This document shows, piece by piece, positions 1,489 to 57,511 of a DNA stretch of 64,000 bases. Numbering within the stretch: position 1 is the stretch's first letter; each line of letters opens with the position of its first letter. The translations under genes and the position numbers were made by a program. Source of the stretch: Mustelus asterias. Lineage: Eukaryota. The notes below the pieces were generated by a model. The model was not told the origin of the DNA, did no database searches, and saw only the letters and a program-made list of their open reading frames with translations. The DNA is taken from positions 116,746,001-116,810,000 of the forward strand of contig NC_135803.1 in assembly GCF_964213995.1 (NCBI RefSeq). The letters are read 5' to 3'.

Positions 1489-3240
1489 GTAAGAAGTTTA
1501 ACAACACCAGGTTAAAGTCCAACAGGTTTATTTGGTAGCAAAAGCATCACAAGCTTTCGGAGCCCCAAGCCCCTTCTTCAGGTGAGTGGAAATTCTGTTC
1601 ACAAACAGGGCATATAAAGACACAAACTCAATTTACATGAATAATGGTTGGAATGCGAATACTTACAGCTAATCAAGTCTTTAAGATACAAACAATGTGA
1701 GTGGAGAGAGAGCATCAAAACTGGCTAAAGAGATGTGTATTGTCTCCAGACAGGTCCAGGCAAGCTGTGGGGATTACAAATAGTGCGACATGAACCCAAT
1801 ATCCCGGTTGAGGCCGTCCTCATGTGTGCGGAACTTGGCTATCAGTCTCTGCTCAGCGACTCTGCGCCGTCGTGTGTCGTGAAGGTCACCTTGGAGAACG
1901 CTTACCCGAATATCAGAGGCCGAATGCCCGTGACCACTGAAGTGCTCCCCACCAGGAAGAGAACAGTCTTGCCTGGTGATTGTCGAGCGGTGTTCATTCA
2001 TCCGTTGTCGCAGCGTCTGCATGGTTTCCCCAATGTACCATGCCTCGGGACATCCTTTCCTGCAGCGTATCAGGTAGACAACGTTGGCCGAGATGCAAGA
2101 GTATGTACCGTGTACCTGGTGGATGGTGTTCTCACGTGAGATGATGGCATCTGTGTCGATGATCTGGCACGTCTTGCAGAGGTTGCTGTGGCAGGGTTGT
2201 GTGGCGTCGTGGTCACTGTTCTCCTGAAGGCTGGGTAGTTTGCTGCGGACAATGGTCTGTTTGAGGTTGTGCGGTTGTTTGCAGGCAAGAAGTGGGGATG
2301 TGGGGGTGGCCTTGGCGAGATGTTCGTCTTCATCAATGACATGTTGAAGGCTCCAGAGGAGATGCCGTAGCTTCTCCGCTCCGGGGAAGTACTGGACGAC
2401 GAAGGGTACTCTGTCCACCGTGTCCCGTGTGTGTCTTCTGAGGAGGTCGGTGCGGTTTTTCACTGTGGTGGGTCGGAACTGTTGATCGATGAGCCGAGTG
2501 CTATATCCTCTTCTTATGAGGGCATCTTTCAGCGTCTGGAGGTGTCTGTTGCGATCCTCCTCATCCGAGCAGATCCTGAGTATACGGAGGGCTTGTCCGT
2601 AGGGGATGGCTTCTTTAACGTGTTTAGGGTGGAAGCTGGAGAAGTGGAGCATCGTGAGGTTATCCGTGGGCTTGCGGTATAGTGAGGCGCTGAGGTGACC
2701 GTCCTTAATGGAGATGCGTGTGTCTAAGAATGCAACCGATTCCAGAGAGTAGTCCATGGTGAGTCTGATGGTGGGATGGAACTAGTTGATGTCATCATAT
2801 AGTTGTTTCAGTGATTGTTCACCATGAGTCCAAAGGAAGAAAATGTCATCGATGTATCTAGTGTATAGCATCGGTTGAAGGTCCCGTGCGGTGAAGAAGT
2901 CTTGTTCGAACCTGTGCATGAAGATGTTGGCATATTGAGGTGCGAATTTGGTCCCCATGGCTGTTCCGTGTGTCTGGATGAAGAACTGGTTGTTGAAGGT
3001 GAAGATATTGTGGTCCAGGATGAAGCGGATGAGTTGTAAAATTGCATCTGGAAACTGGCAGTTGTCGGCGCTGAGCACTGAGGCCATTGCAGCAATGCCA
3101 TCGTCATGGGGGATGCTGGTGCAGAGTGCCGAGACATCCATTGTGATGAGGAGTGCTCCTGGTTCAACTGCTCCATGTGTGCCGAGTTTCTGTAGGAAGT
3201 CCGTAGTGTCGCGACAAAAGCTGGGGGTTCTTTGTACAAT
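1489..3240 (-). mobile_element. Penelope-like retroelement (RT + GIY-YIG endonuclease), 5'-truncated, with pLTR at ~1489-1750
   Basis: RT motifs GTAMG and YTRYIDD (2782-3240) continue in frame across one premature TAG (2782-2784) into ORF 1774-2757. That ORF has a Cys-rich linker (CHSNLCKTC) and the GIY-YIG-type NVVY...WYIGET motif. A direct repeat caatcgacaatctggt flanks the element at 1475-1490 and 3261-3276. Confidence 0.92.
1548..1584 (-). ncRNA. Minimal hammerhead-ribozyme motif in the Penelope pLTR
   Basis: The minus strand reads CAC-CUGAAGA-A-GGGGC uuggg GCUCC-GAAA-GC-UU-GUG: conserved core, stem II, palindromic stem III and stem I CAC/GUG. Confidence 0.7.
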
Positions 3241-4471: not shown

Positions 4472-5074
4472 TGAGTTAGCTTATCTCAGGCAGAGGGATT
4501 GGTTTCAATTAGCTTGAGCACCTTGATATAGGGAGTGGAAAATCTTGCAATGTTTCCAATCCTAATTGGATAAAACAACTGATGAAGAGTAGGACATGTT
4601 CAAAAAAGAATTCAGTTTAATACAATACTGGCATAAACCTTTAAGGGGTAAGAGTTCTTAAAGTTTAGGGCTTTTGAGGTACAAAACTCTTAATTAAAAT
4701 CTCTAAAGTTCTGAATTCTTAGCTGCAACCACTGGGGTCCTCAGTTGTGCCTGACCGAACAAGTTATGAATAATTAGCATTGATGAATCAAGTAGAACTT
4801 ATTAAGCAAAATTTTACAAATACTTAACAAAAAAACCAAGACAACATGGATGTTTCTTATCCCTGAAGGTCCTAGGATTCCTTGAGCATTGCCAGCCTTG
4901 CTTCATCTGTGCCTGAAGTGATGTTACTGTTTTTCAGATGAAGCATCCCACAGAAGCCATGGTGAAGCTATGCTTCAGGACACTAATGGTTTGCTCCATG
5001 AGGTTCCTTGTGGCTGCATGATTCTTGTTATACGTACAGTATCTTCGTATAGTGAGGTTGAGGAGTCAAGTCCT

Positions 5075-6142
5075 GCTCCAGAAACTCATCCACGAAACTC
5101 ATCTCCAAACTCCGTGGCCTGGGCCTCGGCACCTCCCTCAATGAATGGATCCTGAACTTCCTAACTCTCAGACCACAATCAGTAAGGATAGGAAACAATG
5201 CCTCCTCCACGATCACCCTCAACACTGGTGCCCCACAGGACTGTGTTCTCAGCCCCCTACTATACTCCTTATACACCTATTACTGTCTGGCCAAATTCCC
5301 CTCCAATTCGATTTTCAAGTTTGCTGCCAACACCACCGTAGTGGGTCGGATTTCAAACAATGACGAGATAGAGTACAGGAATGAGATAGAGAATCTGGTG
5401 AACTGGTGCGGCAACAATAATCTCTCCCTCAATGTCAACAAAACGAAAGAGATTGCCATCGACTTCAGGAAGCGTAAAGGAGAACATGCCCCTGTCTACA
5501 TCAATGGGGACAAAGTAGAAAGGGTCGAGAGTTTCAAGCTTTTAGGTGTCCAGATTACCAACAACCTGTCCTGGTCCCCCCATGCTGACACTATAGTTAA
5601 GAAAGCCCACCAACACTTCTACTTTCTCGACTCTCATCAACTTTTACAGATACACCATATAAAGCATTCTTTCTGGTTGTATCACAACTTGGTATGGCTC
5701 CTGCTCTGCCCAAGTCCGCAAGGAACTACAAAAGGTCGTGAATGTAGCCCAATCCATCACGCAAACCAGCCTCCCATCCATTGACTCTGTCTACACTTCC
5801 CGCTGCCTCAGCAAAGCAGCCAGCATAATTAAGGGCCCCACGCACCCTGGACATTCTCTCTTCCACCTTCTTCCTTTGGGAAAAAGATACAAAAATTTGA
5901 GGTCATGTACCAACCGACTCAAGAACAGCTTCTTCCGTGCTGCTGTCAGACTTTTGAATGGACTTACCTTGCATTAAGTTGATCTTTCTCTACACCCTAG
6001 CTATGACTGTAACACTACATTGTGCATTCTCTCGTTTCCTTCTCTATGAACTGTGTGTTTTGTCTGTATAGCTTGCAAGAAACAATACTTTTCACTATGT
6101 TAATTCATGTGACAATAATAAATCAAATCAAATCAAATCAAA
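5075..6142 (+). mobile_element. Rex1/Babar-like LINE, 3' part (RT C-terminal region), degenerate
   Basis: Translation gives [17 protein letters not shown]...[10 protein letters not shown]...LNVNKTKE. The 3' UTR ends in (AAATC)n. A second copy lies at 44188-45441. Confidence 0.75.
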
Positions 6143-14270: not shown

Positions 14271-15235
14271 CCCCTCCCCAAGCATCTTATCCAATATGGT
14301 GCCCTGAAGGGTGCTGTGAACAGGTCAAGCAGATTGAAGAATCATCATTGTAACAAAAGGCTGAATTTTACAAGACCTCTGGAGATGGCCTCAGAGGCGG
14401 GAAGTTTTGTCAAATGGTGGTGGATGTTGTCGAGATGTAAACTGAAATCTTCTCGCCGTAGGATAATACCAATGACGGGAACATCAACAGCATGGCTGTC
14501 GACCAATTGGAGGTTGGCTAAATAATGGTCAGCTGCTGACATTTTACCAGCGTTGGGACATATCTCCACTGTGTGAGGACACCACTAAGGCAGACTGGCA
14601 GGGGTTCCTGTTGACCTGCCTTAAAGGCCATTTCATGGCCTGGAGGGGCCACATGGCAGCAAAGGCTGCACCCCCCAACTCCGACATCGCTGCTGATGGG
14701 TTTACCCCTCCAATTGCCGGGACCAGCCTGCCTGACACCAGCATAGTCAAAAGATTATCATACCCAGCTTTTGTAGACATCTCAACATGGAGACATCTTC
14801 TTTACACTGCAGCCTAAGCAGTGGCTACCAGACTGTTGAGCTGACATTGAAAATTGAAATCAGAAGTTGCTGTCGGTGATATCCTGTTGCTGCTCTATTA
14901 CAGCCATTGCCATTGAAATCTGCACCGAGATTACCATCATGTCATGAATTCAGTCTATTTCCTACTAGTCTTGTGCTAGTTGTCTTGCAAATCAGGAGTA
15001 ACCGAATCTTTAACAGCATAATAAGTGAGCATTATTGCTGAACAACCTCTGTGGCCCTGAACTTTTGTAAAAATGTGGGCCAGAATTCTTCGGCTGTTCA
15101 TGCCGGCGAGATTCTCCCGTCTTGCCGGCAGCGGACCCCCACCCGTGGGTTTCCTGCCGGCGTGGGGTGACGTCAATGGGAATTCCCATTGACAGCAGCA
15201 GGACCAGAGAATCCCGCTGCTACCAAACAATGCAT

Positions 15236-15307
15236 AGTAGAGTGGCGCAGCAGAAGCATGCTGGGTTCATAACCCAGAAGTCGATGGATCAAAACCATTC
15301 TCAGCTA
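15236..15307 (+). pseudogene. Initiator tRNA-Met (CAT)-derived sequence, head of a retroposed chimera
   Basis: 72 nt AGTAGAGTGGCGCAGCAGAAGCATGCTGGGTTCATAACCCAGAAGTCGATGGATCAAAACCATTCTCAGCTA. It has 9 substitutions against the vertebrate tRNAi-Met sequence as recalled, keeps the CAT anticodon, has no CCA and is followed by TTTACCTTTT. Confidence 0.88.
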
Positions 15308-15323
15308 TTTACCTTTTATCTGT

Positions 15324-15757
15324 TTGCACTTCAGTCCCACGCTCCTGATCTACGGACACCTGGTGCGGAGAAGGGCGGGTCGGGATGGCGACCTCCTCGT
15401 GAACCTGCTCCTGGGCCTGGCGAAATGCGCCATTTACAGGTCCAGGCAGAGGGCGATCGAGGGGGCTGTCCATCCTGACTGTCTGCCCCTCTATCGCGGC
15501 TACGTTCGTGGCCAGGTGTCCCTGGAGAGGGAGCATGCGGTGTCCACGGGCACGGTTGACGCCTTCCGCGCCCGTTGGGCACCGCAGGGGTTGGGGTGCG
15601 TTATCGACCCTAATAATCACATTATGATTTGATGTTCTTAAGTTTCCTTTGTACTTTGATTTTTGTTCGGGCTGTTCCCCCTCCTTTTGGGAGCTGTCCC
15701 TTTTACTTTGTCCTGATTTAATTTGAGTTTGTTTATTTGGTTTGACCTTAAAAGAGG
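15324..15757 (+). mobile_element. 3' end of a Tx1-type (L1-clade) LINE: ORF2 C-terminus plus T-rich 3' UTR
   Basis: HFSPTLLIYG...LVNLLLGLAKCAIYRSR...AFRARWAPQG resembles Tx1-family ORF2 C-termini. Stop at 15630-15632, then a T-rich UTR ending AAAAGAGG next to the TSD. Confidence 0.72.
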
Positions 15758-16400
15758 CCAAACAATGCACCACCTCCCGCCGGCTGGAAACACGCAGATG
15801 GGAGTCTGGAGAATCTGACCCATGGAGTTTCATTCCTCCTGAAGAAATTAACATTACAAATTTTGCCTTTTTCCTTGAGGACGTTTCTTTAATCCCTTGT
15901 TTATATCCCAATTTTTATTTTGTTTCCTATGCAACAATTTAAATGTTATTTCAATTTTACTATGTAGTAACAGTGGGCCTTGACAACATCCACATTATAA
16001 GTGCAGCAAAATCCAGGCCAATGTCTATTTGAGAACAAGGACAAGGGTCACAGCTGGGTACACAAGAGTTCACAGTTATTTCCAAACTACTGTTGTTGAA
16101 AGTGGAGAAATAGAGATGCTGATTTTTGCAGTCAGAGACTCTCTGCTTATAATGATTCCGTTTATATTGGGCCTCAGTGGAATGGTTACTGAGTTGGTTG
16201 CTCAGGACAAAACAGCAAACCACAATCTGAAGCAATAGAGTTCAATATTAAATCATTTAAAATGAGCAATAGTCAGATTCTCATCTTAGAGTCAAATATG
16301 ACACCAAGGTTCAGGGCTGCTTCAGCCTCAAACAGTTGCCAAGGAGAGGGGTGCAATCAGAAACCAGGGAACCGAACATGCGGCAGAATCTGAAGACAAT

Positions 16401-25704: not shown

Positions 25705-28700
25705 CTATAAGTTCAGACGGTCAGGGGGACCGCACCGTCGTTGTGACCTCCTCAATACCGGCGGTGACACCGGAGTAGGCACCTGCGGTGGCGTTCTCCC
25801 CAAAGCGGCGTCCAGCTGTTCTTCCACGGACTCACAGGCCGGTTGACCCTGAGGTGACGGTAGTCCAGGGGATCCTGACACGCCCTGCGGTGGCGACCAT
25901 CTTCTGGGCTCAGGCAAGCTGTACATGGGAGTAAAATGGTTAAGCAATGGTCCCGATGCTGCCAGCGCCGTGTCCGGGGAAGAAATGAGAGATAATGGGT
26001 TTGTTACTGGGGGTATGGGAGCGACAGGGGTTGCTACGTCCCCTGCTGGCACCAGGTCTCGGATCGAGACCGTGTCCTCTCGCCCGTCAGGGTATGCCAC
26101 ATAGGCATACTGAGGGTTGGCGTGGAGGAGATGGACCTGTTCAACCAAGGGGTCGGAGTTGCGGGCCCTTACATGTCGCCGCAGGAGGACGGGTCCTGAG
26201 TACGTCAACCAAGACGGTAATGAGGTCCCCGAGGAAGACTTCCGAGGGAATGAGAACATCCTCTCGTGGGGAGTAGCATTGGTTGCCGTACACAGGAGGG
26301 AGCGAATAGAGTGGAGCGCATCAGGGAAGACCTCCTGCCAACGGGAGACTGGAAGACCTTTGGACTTCAACGCCAGTAAGACAGCCTTCCAGACTGTAGC
26401 ATTCTCGCGTTCCACCTGTCCATTACCCCTAGGGTTGTAACTCATGGTCCTACTAGAGGCAATCCCGTATGAGAGCAGGAATTGCCTCAAGTCATCGCTC
26501 ATGAACGACGAGCCCCTGTCGCTATGGATATAGCTGGGGTACCCGAACAGGGTAAAAAAATCACGGAATGCCTCGATCACCGTGGCAGCGGATGTATCCG
26601 AGCAGGGAACAACAAACGGGAACCGGGAGTACTCATCGATGATGTTTAGAAAGTACACGTTCCGATCTGTTGAGGGAAGGGGGCCCTTAAAATCAACACT
26701 CAGTCTCTCGAAGGGACGAGTGGCCTTGACCAAATGTGCCTGGTCAGGTCGGTAAAAGTGCGGTTTGCATTCCGCGCAAATCCGACAGCTCCTTGTTACC
26801 GACCTGACGTCCTCCACCGAGTAAGGCAGGTTGCGGGCTTTTACAAAGTGGTAGAGCCGAGTGACCCCAGGATGGCACAGATCATTATGGAGGGCGTTCA
26901 AATGATCCTCCTGAATACTAGCGCATGTTCCACGCGAGAGGGCATCCGAGGGCTCATTGAGTTTCCCTGGACGATACAGGATATCGTAGTTATAGGTGGA
27001 GAGTTCAATTCTCCACCGCAAGATCTTGTCATTCTTGATCTTGCCCCTCTGCGTGTTGTTAAACATGAGCGCCACGGACCGCTGGTCCGTGATCAGGGTG
27101 AACCGTTTTCCCGCCAAGTAATGGCGCCAGTGTCTGACGGCCTCCACAATGGCCTGGGCCTCCTTTTCCACCGCTGAATGCCGAATTTCAGGGCCTTGGA
27201 GGGTGCGGGAAAAAAATGCGACGGGCCTGCCCGCCTGGTTAAGTGTGGCGGCCAGGGCGAAATCAGATGCATCGCTCTCCAGCTGAAAGGGGATGGACTC
27301 ATCTACCGCGTGCATCGTAGCTTTCGCGATGTCGTCTTTCAATTTCTCGAAGGCCAATTGGGCCTCTGGCGTTAGGGGAAAAGTCGTGGACTTAATAAGC
27401 GGACGGGCTTTGTCCGCGTAATTGGGAATCCACTGCGCATAATAAGAGAAGAAGCCTAGGCATCTTCTCAGTGCTTTTGCACTAGCAGGCAAGGGAAGCT
27501 CAGCAAGGGGGCGCATACGGTCTGGATCAGGGCCAATGACCCCGTTTTCCACCACGTATCCTAGGATGGCTAAACGGCGCGTATGAAACACACACTTCTC
27601 CCTGTTGTAGGTCAAGTTCAGGCGAGATGCAGTGCGTAAGAAGTTCAGGAGGTTTGTGTCGTGGTCCTGCTGGTCATGGCCGCAGATGGTGACATTATCC
27701 AGGTACGGGAAGGTAGCCCGCAGCCCGTTCTGGTCCACCATTCGGTCCATAGCACGCTGGAAGACCGAGACCCCATTGGTGACACCAAAGGGAACCCTGA
27801 GAAAATGATACAAGCGACCATCCACCTCAAAAGCCGTGTATTGTCGGTCCTCTGGGCGAATGGGGAGTTGGTGGTAGGCAGACTTGAGGTCTATGGTGGA
27901 GAACATCCGGTACTGCGCAATCTGATTGACCATATCAGATATGAGCGGGAGAGGATACGCATCCAGCTGCGTATATCGGTTAATGGTTTGACTGTAGTCA
28001 ATGACAATCCGGGGTTTGTTCCCGCTCTTGACCACCACAACCTGTGCTCTCCACGGACTAACACTGGGTTGTATGATCCCTTCTTTGAGGAGCCGCTGAA
28101 CCTCAGATCTAATGAAGATCCGATCCTCAGTGCTGTAACGCCTACTTTTAGTCGCGATGGGCTTGCAGCCTGGTACCAGATTCTGAAACAAAGAGGGAGT
28201 GGTGATCTTTAGCGTCGAGAGGTTGCAGGCGGGGTGCGTTGGGCAATTTGGAGGCTGCTGCTGTTTTCCCACTGCCAGTGAAGGGAGTGGCCCACCGTAC
28301 TGTAGGATTACGCTCCTCAAGTGGACCATGAAGTTTAGTCCGAGAAGTATTGGCGCGCAAAGATACGGCAACACAAGGAGCTTGAAGCGCTCGTAAACTG
28401 TGCCTTGTACTTTCAAGGTTACCACGCAACTCCTTAGCACGGCAACAGACCGGGACCTTGATGCCATAGAGATTGTCTGTTTGGCAGGTTGAATCTGGAG
28501 TCCACACCTCTTCACAGTGTCTGGGTGGATAAAGCTCTCAGTGCTCCCGCTGTCAAACAGACAATAAAGCACATGATTGTTTACCTGGATATTCATCATT
28601 GAACGATCGAGTCTATGAGGCTTGGCCTGGTCCAGGATGATCGACGCCACCGTTGGTTCATGATCGCCACTGCAGGCAGCTGAAATCGATGCTGAGGACC

Positions 28701-29698
28701 CCTGCTGGTCGTTCATGGTCAGTGTCGACCAACATGGCTGCCCCCATGAATCGCACGTGGGTAAGGGCGCCAAACTCCGCGACCCCTGGTGGTCATACTC
28801 CTCCGACTCCGTCGACCGTAATGGCGTCGTCCTGGCCTCGCACGTGGATGAACCCCGCGACGACTTCGACGATGATGATGATCCAAGCTCCGAAGAATCG
28901 CAGGCCGCACTGCCGTTCCTGGGTTTCAATCGGCACACCTTTGCATAATGCCCTTTTTTACCGCATGCAGTGCACAATACAGCTTTAGCGGGACACTTTT
29001 GCCGGGTATGTTTTGCTCCTCCACAGAAGTAGCACCGCGGGCCGCACGGGGCTGCAGCTGTCATCTGGCCCGAATGGGAGCACGCCATTACACAGCATTT
29101 CGAATCCGAGGGGCGAGGAGGGATTTGCGACTGCTCCTGCCACGTTGTCTCCACGTGGTCCTCTGGATATAAGACTAAGCTCTTTGAAGCCGACTTGAGT
29201 ATCTCTGCTAACTCGATGGCCTGGGTAAGATTAAGGTTACCCTTCTCCAACAGTTTAAGTCGAACGTACGACGATCCGACCCCAGCCACAAACACATCTC
29301 GGGCGAGGTCATACATGCTCTGCTCAGCCGACACAGCTTTGCAGTCACAGCCCCTGGCTAGCTGTAAGAGCTCATTGGCATAGTCCTCCATCGTTTTGCC
29401 CGACTGCCGTCGTCGAGTGGCTAGGAGGTAACGAGCGTGTATCTCGTTAGGTGGTTTTGTATAGCGCTTCTTTAGAAGCTCGAGGGCCTTAGGGTGATTA
29501 GTGGCCGCACGGATCGCGAGGTAGACTGTGTCGCTTACCCTCGCATGGAGGACCCGGAGTCTGTCATCATCTGTGGTGACCGCTGTGGAGGCTGCTAGGT
29601 AAATCTTCTAAACACTTCAGCCAGTGGTCGAAGGTGTTAGAAGCGCCCACCGCACGTGGATCTAGCGTCAGACGTTCTGGCTTGAGAATTTGCTCCAC
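25705..29698 (-). CDS. Gag-Pol polyprotein (two CCHC knuckles, protease, RT, RNase H, integrase); +1 frameshift near 29600, GTG at the expected start
   Basis: ORF 25705-29391 is open for 1228 aa: CYFCGGAKHTRQKC / CTACGKKGHYAKVC, LFDSGS, IDLKSAYHQ, PFG, YLDN, SDAS, HHCC, D-D-E. The upstream gag frame (EQILKPERL...FDHWLKC / YLAASTAV...LATRRRQSGKTMEDY) joins it after one frameshift. Confidence 0.92.
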
Positions 29699-47055: not shown

Positions 47056-47528
47056 ATTATAATGATATTATTTCCATTACTCAATATTCACTCTGAGATA
47101 TTATGACTCTGTCACATAAATGGATCATTTTCCTTTTATTTCTATTTGATGGAGTTTTAGAATGTGATCCATTCTATCGTCCTGTGGAATCTAACCCTGT
47201 GCCTGTGAGGTATACAGTTAGATATATAGTAGAAAATCAGCATGTTCATCCTAGTTGTGTGCGTTAGCTGGTTACACCGTGGTACATTATTAATTCATTG
47301 CCTCATTCAGCTCCCAAAGGAGTTTACATTGTGCCCTGTGACATGCAACAATGGAAATCTTAGTCAAGTGCTGAGAAAGATTTCTAAATGAACCAATTTG
47401 AATCTCTATGGGAGATTTGTCTTAAGTTGTTAGTGACTTTTATACATGAGTTTTATCAGAATTAAGAAACTCTACATTAATAAAAGCAAAAAGAACCCCA
47501 CAAAACTGAAAATCTCTCTTCTCCACAG

Positions 47529-48971
47529 CAAACTTTGGCAAGAAAAACTGAAGAAGAAGCACAAGTTGAAAAGGAGTGCGAGAAAGAAAAGAGTAAAAGT
47601 GAAACAAGAAACAGAGAGAAGAAAGAAGAAGGAAGCGGCAAACACCTGAATGGAAACGGTCAAAGGACTCAAGAAGTGGAAGATGACAAACCAGAGAGCA
47701 AAGAGATCAAGTACAAATCAGAGAAAGAGAAAGAAACGATAGAGGTGATGAAGTCACAGCAAAACAAAGATGTGCCAGTTACTGAACCTGAACCAGAAGC
47801 TGAGGGCAGTAACCAGCCAGAGAGAACAGCAGAGAAGAGCCCAGATCAACACATCAAACAGTGGAAGATTGAAGACACCTTTCCCTTGTGCAACAAGAAA
47901 AAGCTGGATTCCTCTACTGAAGAGCAGTGTGAAGACAAGGAAAGCAAGAAAAGCAGCGAAGAAGAAATTTCTACACCTCCGAAAGAAAGCCAGGAAATTA
48001 CAGAGATGAAAACAAGCAATGGAAAGGCAGGAAAGAAGCTAGAATTGGATAGCAGTTTCCTCAAACTGACTGCAAGACCTTCAGGAAACCCAACGCTTTT
48101 AGATGAGACGCTGGCGGATATTCGCAAAAACAAATCTGACCTTACAGAGGTCAACCTGAACAATGTAGAAAATATCCCTAAAGATATGCTGAAAAGCTTT
48201 GTGGAAGCTTTGAAGAAGAATAAGCACATCACTACATTCAGCATTACTAACACGGGCGCTGATGACGAAATTGCTTTTGCCATAGCCAACATGCTGAGAG
48301 AGAACAAGAAAATTGTAACTCTCAATATCGAGTCCAACTTCATCACAGGCAAGGGCATTGTGGCTATCATGAGGTGCTTGCAGTTCAATGAGATTCTCAC
48401 TGAGTTGAGGTTTCACAACCAGAGGCATATGTTGGGTCACCATGCCGAGATGGAGATCGCCAGACTCCTCAAAGCCAACACTACCCTCCTGAAGTTGGGT
48501 TACCACTTCGAGCTGCCAGGCCCCAGGATGGTGGTCACTAACTTACTGACTCGCAATCTCGATCAGCAGAGGCAAAGGAGGCTGGAGCAGCAGAGAAACC
48601 AGTTTATGCAAGAACAAGAAATGATGGTGAATGCCTGCCAGAAAATCTCCCCTGACCAGCTGGAGATGTTGGGTGAATATGTGCCCAATCTCTCCACCTA
48701 CCATGAAGACTCTCGTCTCCCACCAAACGCCTTTCACAATCGTCCAAAAAGCAACATTCAACGAATACAACTCAGAAAACCTCCCAAAAAACAGAGTAAA
48801 AATAAAGCTGGTCAAGACAGAACAGATGGGAATGACAAGCCAAACCTCAAGGCAATGATAAGGTCACTAAAGCCAGTTCCCAGGAATCGACAAGAACCTT
48901 TAGTTGAAGATACCCCTCGAGACCAGTTGTTAAATGATATTCGTCAGAGCAACGTGGCTTATTTAAAACCT
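47529..48971 (+). CDS. LMOD3: Leiomodin-3, coding exon 2 (E/K-rich linker, LRR actin-binding domain, start of WH2; 481 codons)
   Basis: Acceptor ctctcttctccacag|; ARPSGNPT...EVNLNN...[52 protein letters not shown]; [20 protein letters not shown]|GTGAGT. Confidence 0.96.
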
Positions 48972-49317
48972 GTGAGTAATATTTCCATAAGCTCCCAAGT
49001 GGTCTTTTATACGACCATAGGATCCCCACAGTGCAGGAGGCCATTTGATCCATTGAGTCTGCACCTACTCTGCAAAACAGCATCTTACCCAGGCCCACCC
49101 CCACCCCACCCTCCAGTTTCCAGAACCCCGCATGTTTACCATGCCTAATCCACCTAACCTACACATCTTTGGATCACCCTTCTTTCCGAGCAACACCATT
49201 CAGCTGCCATCAATCATAACTGGTGTCAATTTTCCTTGTGCATTCAAGATTTTTGGTTAATATCAAATTAATTTTCATAACTTTAAAAACGTCAAACATT
49301 CAACTTTAAACATTAAA

Positions 49318-55399: not shown

Positions 55400-55729
55400 G
55401 ATCATAGATTAGAATCATACAGTGCAGAAGGAGGCCATTCGGCCCATCGAGTCTGCACCAACCACAATCCCACCCAGACCCTATCCCCACAACCCCATGC
55501 ACTTACTCTAGCTAGTCCCCCTGACATTAAGGGGCAATTTAGCCCAGCCAATCCACCTAACTCGCATATCTTTGGACTGTGGGAGGAAACCGGAGCATCC
55601 AGAGGAAACCCACGCAGACATAGGGAGAACGTGCAAACTTCACACAGACAGCGACCCAAGCCGGGAATCGAACCCGGGTCCCTGGCACTATGAGACAGCA
55701 GTGCTAACCACTGTGCCACCATGCCACCC
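55400..55729 (-). mobile_element. HE1/V-SINE-type SINE inside a degenerate CR1 (~54940-56130)
   Basis: Full head, core and tail. Confidence 0.87.
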
Positions 55730-57511
55730 TATCCACCTTGATGAGTTGGTATTCTCAGGAACTTGGGTATTTATGTATACAGTCACAGAAAAGTAATATG
55801 CAGATACCGCACGTAATTAGCTAGGCAAATGTTTTGTTAACCTTTCTGATAAGGGGGCTAGACTATAAGAGCAAGGAAGTCGTGCTGTAATAATATGGGA
55901 CTAACTCCACATCTTTAGTGCTGGTACAAATTTGGTCTCCTAACTGAAGGGAGGATATATAAAATTAATTCGCGGTTTGACTGAGGTAGTGTCAAGGTAC
56001 TGTTTCTCCCTGACTGAAGAGTATAGTCTCAAGCCCAACATGCTCTCCCATTTAGGACTGAGATGATAAATGTCAGAAGGTTGTGAAGTTTAGGAATTCT
56101 ATGCCAGAGGGCGGTGTATGCTCAGCTGTTGATTATTTTTGTTCTCAATGAATCTATGCTGGTTCTCCTTTATTCGACCATACTTGACTAAGTGACTGTT
56201 AATTTTATTCCAAATTGTTTGTAAAAGCTTTCCCACCACAACTGTAGTTGCCAGGTTTATTATTCTCGCCTTATTTTGACAAAGTGTATCACATTTTCCA
56301 ACTCCAGTCCTCTGGTACTGCCCATATTTTAGGAAGATTGAATTGTAGCCAGCCAGCATTTTCATTATTTCGACCCTTACTGGCCTCAGGATGAATTATC
56401 AACTGTGCCCTTCCAACCTTTCTAGTTCCTCCTTACTTGCTTTTTGTTTTACCCAATTCAATCTTACCAGAGCTATTCAAAATTTTTACTGCAACAATGA
56501 AGGAGATGAATGCTGTTATTTTCTGCCACATTGTAAAACCTAGAATTTAATAGTTACTGGCAGTACAAAACACATTTTAGTAGCTGTTAATTCATTTAAA
56601 TTCTCAAAAACAAAAATATTAAAATGCATTTAAAGTTTTCAATTAATATCACTAATAAGTTACTTAAGGAATAACCTAATGACGATGGTGTCTAATGAAA
56701 AGTTGCATTTGTTTCCTGTGTCAATTCAACTTCGAACACAGATGTAAGAAATGGATGACCAGACACATTCCACCTCCTGCCCCAACACATTACATTGGCA
56801 AATTTACTCAAATATCTGGACCCAAAGGTTTGGAGAACTGACACCAACATATCAAACCCCAACTAATGATATAATGTAACCCAAATCCTAATTATTAATA
56901 AATTTTTCAAGCTATGTTACTCAGTATTAGGAATTGTATCCCTCCACTTCAACTCTCTATTGCTAAGAAATATTTGAAAATGATCACTGTGCTATCCCTT
57001 GTCTTGCCATTTTTTTTCCTTCTTGCCCTCCTGAAGGTATTGACTCGTGGCTGGAATACTGAGCAGCCCCTAATCTCTCAGCCAAGCAGTCACTCACCAC
57101 AAGCTACCTTAGATGATGCACAGCAGTAGATTGTTCAAACCAAGTTCAGGCACTAAGAAACCAGCAGGACATGCCTTTCTTTCCTTTTCATTCTTTTGAC
57201 ATTTTGAAGTGCAATAAATCTTAGTCAACATTCCTTCTGTGACCACCACCAGCCAAAACAGATTAACTGATCTTTCATCTAGATTGTTCTTTGTCGAATC
57301 AGTCTGTGCATGGATTGGCTGTTGTAGTTGCTTACAGAATACTGATTGCACTTCAACCATAATTCATTGGGTGATGTACACCATTCTGGGATGTCACAAG
57401 GTCATGATCAGACAATACACACATCTCAAGGGGATATATTGTCTTTGTGCAATTTGTAATTAATTCACCCAAATGCTGAAATTTACACTTTCTTTCTCGT
57501 CTTGTTCACAG

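Follow-up and report, generated by a model that had tools for sequence, protein, structure and literature searches.

A 523-bp insert in the genome of Mustelus asterias joins a tRNAi-Met-derived head, with its genomic trailer, to the 3′ end of a Tx1-like LINE. We regard it as a single-copy chimera that probably arose in a single insertion event, through a template switch of the LINE reverse transcriptase from LINE RNA onto an unprocessed Pol III transcript at that transcript's U-ended 3′ end. Related joins between tRNAs and retroposons recur in this genome, at an estimated several hundred loci. The insert lies in a stretch of 64,000 nucleotides (assembly GCF_964213995.1, contig NC_135803.1, positions 116,746,001 to 116,810,000), referred to here as the window, and coordinates below are those of the window.

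The first-pass annotation had described a perfect 12-bp TSD around an insert that splits a MITE and begins with a complete tRNAi-Met copy, followed by a Pol III trailer or terminator, about 100 codons of a Tx1-like ORF2 C-terminus and its 3′ UTR. This description stands, except that the tRNA copy starts at 15236 rather than 15235. The whole stretch bounded by the TSD CCAAACAATGCA occupies 15235-15757 inside the MITE; uninterrupted relatives of the MITE (L135/L136 and L108) have one copy of the motif duplicated in the window, where CCAAACAATGCA occurs twice when both strands are counted. The features of the locus are the following:

15076-15222 (no strand): left part of the MITE (about 210 bp), with a terminal inverted end at about 15076
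15223-15234 (+): left TSD copy, with the CCAA start also seen at targets where this Tx1-like LINE has ordinary copies
15235 (+): leader base T, tRNA position -1; the preceding A is assignable to the leader or to the TSD
15236-15307 (+): tRNAi-Met-derived head of 72 nt, with a CAT anticodon and no CCA (Rfam RF00005, 42.2 bits)
15308-15317 (+): genomic 3′ trailer TTTACCTTTT, ending in a T4 Pol III terminator (15314-15317) and identical in array genes L033/L034 and in locus L032
15318 (+): junction A, absent from gene and donor, which completes an 8-nt match to the LINE
15319-15632 (+): 5′-truncated C-terminus of the LINE ORF2, 103 codons, stop codon at 15630-15632
15633-15757 (+): LINE 3′ UTR of 125 nt, ending TTAAAAGAGG, with three further T4-T5 runs
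15758-15769 (+): right TSD copy, a perfect 12-mer repeat of the left copy
15770-15822 (no strand): right part of the MITE, with a terminal inverted end at about 15822

The LINE 3′ end contributes 439 nt of the insert, and the T-runs comprise T4 at 15314, T5 at 15660, and T4 at 15685 and 15701. A contig from a second sample spans 15193-15317, covering MITE, TSD, tRNA and trailer, without a difference, which rules out an assembly artefact at the left junction. Contigs of four organisms aligned to the window stretch break at repeats, and joints that skip 535 bases may stem from other copies of the MITE. A Pfam search with the window's 119-aa frame found no domain.

Several other features were observed in the window. 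A 554-codon open frame at 47484-49148 (+), without a Pfam match, reads like what we take to be a large exon of leiomodin (LMOD3-like). The interval 25705-29607 (-) holds a 1300-codon uninterrupted gag-pol of a gypsy-like LTR retrotransposon with protease, RT, RNase H and integrase; a weak Penelope-like GIY-YIG piece lies at 1774-2781 (-) and an RVT_1 fragment at 5062-5784 (+). The second tRNA called by ARAGORN, at 55653-55742 (-), was rejected as a gene, being the head of an HE1-like SINE.

The LINE portion belongs to a dispersed family with characteristic targets. Its ORF2 end has 72% identity to the end of P0001, which has RVT_1 and zf-RVT matches, both below cut-off, and the 437 sites compared differ from the majority of 29 ordinary copies at 9 (2.1%). 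Exact TSDs of 10-15 nt flank 10 of these 29 copies, CC directly follows 23 of the 27 with a full 3′ end, and the same 110-480-nt sequence lies in the 3′ flanks of seven (L005, L009, L015, L016, L023, L027 and L029). The family thus has repeated targets. The window's 12-bp TSD starting CCAA fits these ordinary copies, which indicates that this LINE was responsible for the insertion. The label Tx1-like rests on a preference for certain targets and on TSDs of about 10-15 bp, together with weak zf-RVT (E 0.012-0.018) and, upstream in L254, zf-CCHC (E 0.001) matches, these domain matches all being below cut-off. The label is plausible; homologue and atlas searches found no informative family name. 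Two copies of the window LINE (L026/L259 and L188) lie on the tRNA-array contig C85, and one of the 29 best copies is on an array contig, away from any iMet trailer. A fixed insertion site beside tRNA genes, as in the array-targeted Tx1 type that we presume to be Dewa-like, was not found among the 29 best copies, whose targets are dispersed. A related subfamily was seen to insert repeatedly at one motif of an LTR-like repeat (L120, L160 and L218). Locus L160 carries three LINE tails in tandem, and L258 has an env-like frame upstream.

The head differs from the array gene at 8 of 72 bases and is not pristine. Array genes L033 and L034 both read tRNA-TTTACCTTTT-CAGG with T at -1, a base present in most array genes and also at 15235; the window follows their trailer to the end of the T-run and then departs. 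The first-pass annotation took the missing CCA to favour a genomic or pre-tRNA template; the trailer is in fact genomic, being equal to that of array genes up to the T-run.

As the source of the captured RNA we lean towards the older dispersed chimera L032 on contig C11, the other option being a variant gene missing from the assembly. L032 shares the trailer and five of the eight head changes with the window and has only one private head change, and a diagnostic 16-mer of the head occurs three times in the genome, never in arrays. Divergence from the majority of relatives is 10.6% for the SINE partner of L032, as against 2.1% for the window LINE; had both loci come separately from a variant gene at those ages, a single private change in L032 would have p of about 0.002. 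L032 retains tRNA boxes and a T5 terminator, and its low private change beside an older SINE partner suggests that it was probably transcribed and captured later. Two of the window head's non-CpG changes are present in L063 and one in L210, however, so a variant gene lineage existed and the assignment to L032 is not certain.

The window junction was searched for throughout the 3.68-Gb genome. With the whole insert as query, 4894 candidates were returned, and among the best 40 scored the window alone covers the first 82 bases. Head plus trailer gave 380 candidates, the best 40 of which are the window, L032 and 38 places on small array contigs. A junction pattern allowing one mismatch had four matches, with a LINE behind it at the window only. 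These searches score the best candidates or need a near-exact match, so that old, diverged copies could be missed. The dispersed copies with an identical junction that would mark a SINE family, a check suggested by the first-pass annotation, were thus not found for this insert, and at the sequence level there is no terminator-free Pol III path from head to tail.

The type of join, as distinct from this junction, is widespread. Loci L032 and L063 carry the same iMet head followed by a SINE that we take, here and at the other chimeric loci, to be HE1-like. A paper search found nothing on HE1, and the accessible part of PMC5499810 does not mention it. A pattern of the iMet 3′ end, 4-24 nt and the SINE head had 24 matches at 23 loci (control 0), and the plain iMet 3′-end pattern had 222 (control 1); among the 100 matches listed of these 222, 72 were non-array loci, and all 72 were read. 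Pooling several patterns, with the SINE head within about 70 nt, yielded 44 distinct loci, so that tRNAi-Met heads are fused to the HE1-like SINE at at least 44 loci. Their spacers differ, and many match the trailers of different array genes; four long spacers (52-66 nt) end in a T-run, and gene-matching leaders are kept in L074 and L163. The SINE partner aligns from base 1-4 in 28 of the 44. Up to 150 of the 222 iMet 3′-end matches may lie in arrays, 28 of those listed being on C85, and large mixed tRNA arrays were noted on contigs C85, C102, C103, C130, C141, C223, C243, C383 and C959.

Other partners and longer chains were also found. Loci L120 and L160 have iMet heads on Tx1-like tails of about 130 and 45 nt, with other junctions and TSDs of about 16-17 nt, and three loci (L110, L165 and L168) have iMet heads on CR1-like pieces, named by eye. 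Serial chains comprise iMet, an intron-bearing Pro and a SINE in L185, and iMet then Asn, enclosed by a 16-nt TSD, in L161. In L094 a 5S-like piece directly precedes the iMet head, and in L075 a short T-arm piece is repeated at the 5′ junction. L162, L163 and L074 have a trailer without T4 before the SINE; in L162 and L163, whose iMet heads are unmutated, transcription could continue through, making them candidate seeds of dimeric SINEs.

The joins are not specific to iMet, an idea rejected when a generic A-box/B-box pattern followed by the SINE head returned 638 matches (control 1) with many different tRNAs. Among the first 30 of these, 16 of 28 distinct sense loci scored above the Rfam cut-off at the head position, and head identities assigned by ARAGORN and by eye include Gln, Arg, Val, Gly, Met, Asp, Ile, Pro, Lys and Thr. 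The antisense version had 579 matches, with an Rfam tRNA in none of the first 12 loci; the 100 rows listed are mostly head-to-head pairs of HE1-like SINEs within 40 nt, so the count is unusable as background and the Rfam result for the first 12 loci was used. Scaling the 638 matches gives an estimated lower bound of roughly 340 loci, against very roughly 290,000 SINE heads in the genome (from 13 motifs in 164 kb); the estimate is more than 300 for heads of tRNAs other than iMet and several hundred for tRNA-retroposon joins in all. In the joins found, heads are in sense and trailers are kept, as are leaders or introns in some. Heads resembling tRNA-Pro(TGG) in L140, L144 and L185 have about 18 additional nt within the anticodon loop, which ARAGORN calls an intron in L140. 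When very short Tx1-like tails were searched for heads from other tRNAs, three loci came up, of which L218 has a rearranged tRNA-Val-like head and two are unrelated. At L126, L132, L145, L127 and L220, heads of other SINEs or of the HE1-like SINE stand in the tRNA position and end in T-runs; SINE transcripts may be captured in the same way as pre-tRNAs.

TSDs of at least 7 nt were found in 3 of 28 and 3 of 22 SINE chimeras, no excess over nulls of 9% and 13% from shuffled pairs; no excess of long TSDs is expected of CR1/L2-type machinery. Single-step insertion at the SINE loci consequently rests on the 10 of 52 chimeras in which both flanks are collinear with intact repeats. In none of the 52 chimeras tested does a gene trailer resume after the tail.

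Head starts point to a preferred stopping place within the tRNA. The 44 iMet heads comprise 20 with a start at index 1-4, 17 with one at index 57-60 and seven in between; A58 corresponds to index 57 in tRNAi-Met and to index 56 in tRNA-Gly(GCC). The 17 of 24 truncated heads at index 57-60 have p of 7e-15 against a uniform spread. Before this count, 26 short iMet matches without a SINE behind them were dropped; about 10 of these share a common context like the primer-binding site of an LTR element, and the rest are unassigned or chance. A prediction test on tRNA-Gly(GCC) gave 48 matches (control 0), and of the 28 distinct heads among the first 30, half (14) start at 1-9 and the other 14 at 55-63, with the interval 10-54 empty. 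The trailer common to whole Gly heads, which we infer to be genomic, is present in eight of the 14 late-start heads, and all eight start at 55-58; two further late-start matches have no SINE tail and are probably chance. Heads shorter than 12-14 nt escape both the iMet and the Gly pattern. A pattern anchored in the trailer gave 21 matches, six of them informative, with starts at 1, 8, 56, 57, 59 and 62; the other 15 matched the anchor alone and are uninformative, one of them being a tRNA-Ile head.

The methyl group of m1A58 blocks reverse transcriptase and is already placed on the pre-tRNA, and the peak near A58 is most simply read as what a reverse-transcription stop at m1A58 would give. T-loop structure or cleavage in the T-loop could produce a similar peak. 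Long heads gave no signal of misincorporation opposite A58, with A in 26 of 27 and G in one. Starts at 10, 25 and 45 in L078, L168, L112 and L176 lie near modified positions 9, 26 and 46 and are too few to weigh.

For the window, the proposed sequence of events would begin with an endonuclease nick in the MITE and the priming of cDNA synthesis at the 3′ end of the LINE. Having copied about 440 nt, the enzyme would leave the LINE RNA, either through a match of ACCTTTT to the trailer or by an end-to-end jump, copy the pre-tRNA to position -1, and the second strand would then be joined. In other events copying would halt around A58, with m1A58 as the simplest cause. Seven bases upstream of the start of the window's LINE part the LINE sequence is ACCTTTTA, and the 7-nt deletion that the microhomology reading requires was seen in no other LINE copy. 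The junction would be either a microhomology switch with 7 nt lost or an end-to-end jump with a chance match, both being template switches. A single TSD surrounds the whole unit, and its length and initial CCA are those usual for this LINE. Among the origins listed in the first-pass annotation, a template switch onto pre-tRNA is the best supported; its description as a one-off event does not hold, the same kind of join recurring at dozens of the loci examined with many tRNAs and several retroposon partners. Since Pol III would stop at the T4 before the tail, the window copy is likely a dead end.

RNA ligation is the main rival to template switching, although we consider it unlikely for the window. 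RtcB would join the cyclic-phosphate end of a pre-tRNA to the 5′-OH of a broken LINE RNA, and the fusion would then be retrotransposed, as for U6/L1. The triphosphate carried by Pol III transcripts and the 3′-OH of nascent pre-tRNAs would disfavour such a reaction. RtcB ligation needs a 5′-OH and is much reduced by a triphosphate, according to the accessible text of PMC6789731. In its layout the window does resemble the U6/L1 pseudogenes of that source, with a whole Pol III RNA, a T-run, a 5′-truncated LINE and a TSD, and its partner is truncated inside ORF2 as in the U6/L1 chimeras made by ligation. The 8-nt match to the nearby LINE at the junction is not expected from ligation and counts against it. 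Most partners in the genome, moreover, are SINEs that begin at their own 5′ end, and the 28 of 44 aligned from base 1-4 suit a jump from a finished template.

Two separate events are a still less probable origin: a LINE could have inserted at the terminator of a dispersed tRNA copy, or a read-through transcript from an array gene into a Tx1 element could later have moved as one unit. Tx1 families often have target preferences (PMC4494074, in the part available), and two copies of the window LINE do lie inside array contig C85. Neither adjoins an iMet trailer, however, and in length the copy at L188 falls 38 nt short of the window piece. The read-through from a tRNAi-Met gene into a Tx1 just downstream, raised in the first-pass annotation together with the proposal to inspect such genes, gained no support: array genes L033 and L034 have the TTTACCTTTT trailer, none of the sampled array genes has the LINE at its trailer, and the targets of the LINE are dispersed. 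The enclosure of the whole unit in one TSD, the T4-T5 terminator at the join and the lack of continuing gene trailers after the tails of the 52 chimeras tested also speak against two events. The remaining proposal, a SINE family with a tRNAi-Met head mobilised by Tx1, matches the layout of the insert and has a precedent in Tx1-mobilised SINEs (SINEU, available part of PMC4494074), but it is refuted within the sensitivity of the genome searches by a junction that is single-copy, by the lack of the head in the 40 other best matches to the insert (of 4894) and by a Pol III terminator kept in the head, one of four T4-T5 runs in the insert.

Compared with known systems, the window locus appears to work like a U6/LINE chimera with a pre-tRNA as the captured RNA. 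U6 chimeras with L1, L2, RTE and their SINEs are described in platypus and anole, and mammalian switching as nearly restricted to U6 and U6atac, in the accessible text of PMC4476161; for U6/L1, RtcB ligation was shown to need a cyclic phosphate and a 5′-OH (PMC6789731, accessible text). As far as these texts go, the likeness to U6/LINE and U6/SINE retrogenes extends to a whole Pol III RNA with its T-run, in sense, within one TSD, with variable junctions and several LINE clades. The window insert has this layout, on a 5′-truncated LINE, and the genome has independent events with variable junctions. The small RNA in the window is tRNAi-Met rather than U6 or U6atac. Unlike the U6 chimeras of these two sources, the joins found here involve pre-tRNAs of many isotypes with leader, trailer and sometimes intron, an estimated hundreds of loci, many heads that stop near A58, and full-length SINEs as most partners.

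Primate tRNA/LINE-1 chimeras, in the accessible text of bioRxiv 10.1101/2025.02.02.635956, comprise 21 loci, mostly antisense tRNA halves read as twin priming, and the word "trailer" does not occur there. They too have tRNA and LINE inserted together within one TSD, whereas the heads described here are in sense, whole or cut at A58, with a trailer; the window head is whole and in sense, and the antisense control gave 0 of 12. The SINEU families are amplified, with U1 or U2 heads (PMC4494074, in part). In them, too, the 5′ ends of retroposons have repeatedly gained small-RNA heads, presumably by template switching, with Tx1 machinery; the window junction, unlike theirs, has not been amplified. 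Tailless and pre-tRNA retropseudogenes, which PMC4476161 and PMC2912911 cite in their available parts, start from priming on the tRNA itself and lack a retroposon tail. There also LINE machinery reaches nuclear pre-tRNA, and L161 and L181 look like that class, whereas the window has a LINE 3′ end. At R2 5′ junctions in human cells the extra RNA is almost always U6, with jumping versus ligation left open in the accessible part of PMC11371274. A non-LTR reverse transcriptase there continues onto a second RNA, leaving noncoding RNA at 5′ junctions, as proposed here, but the RNA captured here is a pre-tRNA, not U6. A literature search that was thin on subscription papers turned up no description of pre-tRNA heads joined in sense to SINEs or LINEs, nor of an A58 stop in genomic copies, and the large set of pre-tRNA/retroposon joins in this genome is apparently undescribed.

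The broader reading, which we hold with about equal belief and doubt, is that jumps onto nascent U-ended pre-tRNAs, with a stall at m1A58, are routine for the reverse transcriptases of at least three LINE lineages. The genome would then constitute a fossil germ-line tRNA-seq library recording leaders, terminators, introns and modification state, and at the same time a catalogue of proto-SINE births, including second-round capture from an earlier chimera.

The origin of SINEs is thought to lie in a template switch that attaches a tRNA head to a LINE tail, a step usually inferred from finished families. In this genome the raw head-tail joins can be counted and dated, and it can be asked why amplification is rare, given that the terminator comes along; taken alone, the window locus is a dead copy and only modestly interesting. 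Full-length Pol III SINEs make up most of the partners, and for this reason the joins also allow template jumping and RNA ligation to be weighed against each other in nature, a matter still undecided for U6 chimeras. Should the A58 peak hold across the whole genome, a modification carried by trailer-bearing pre-tRNA of the germ line would be readable from DNA alone.
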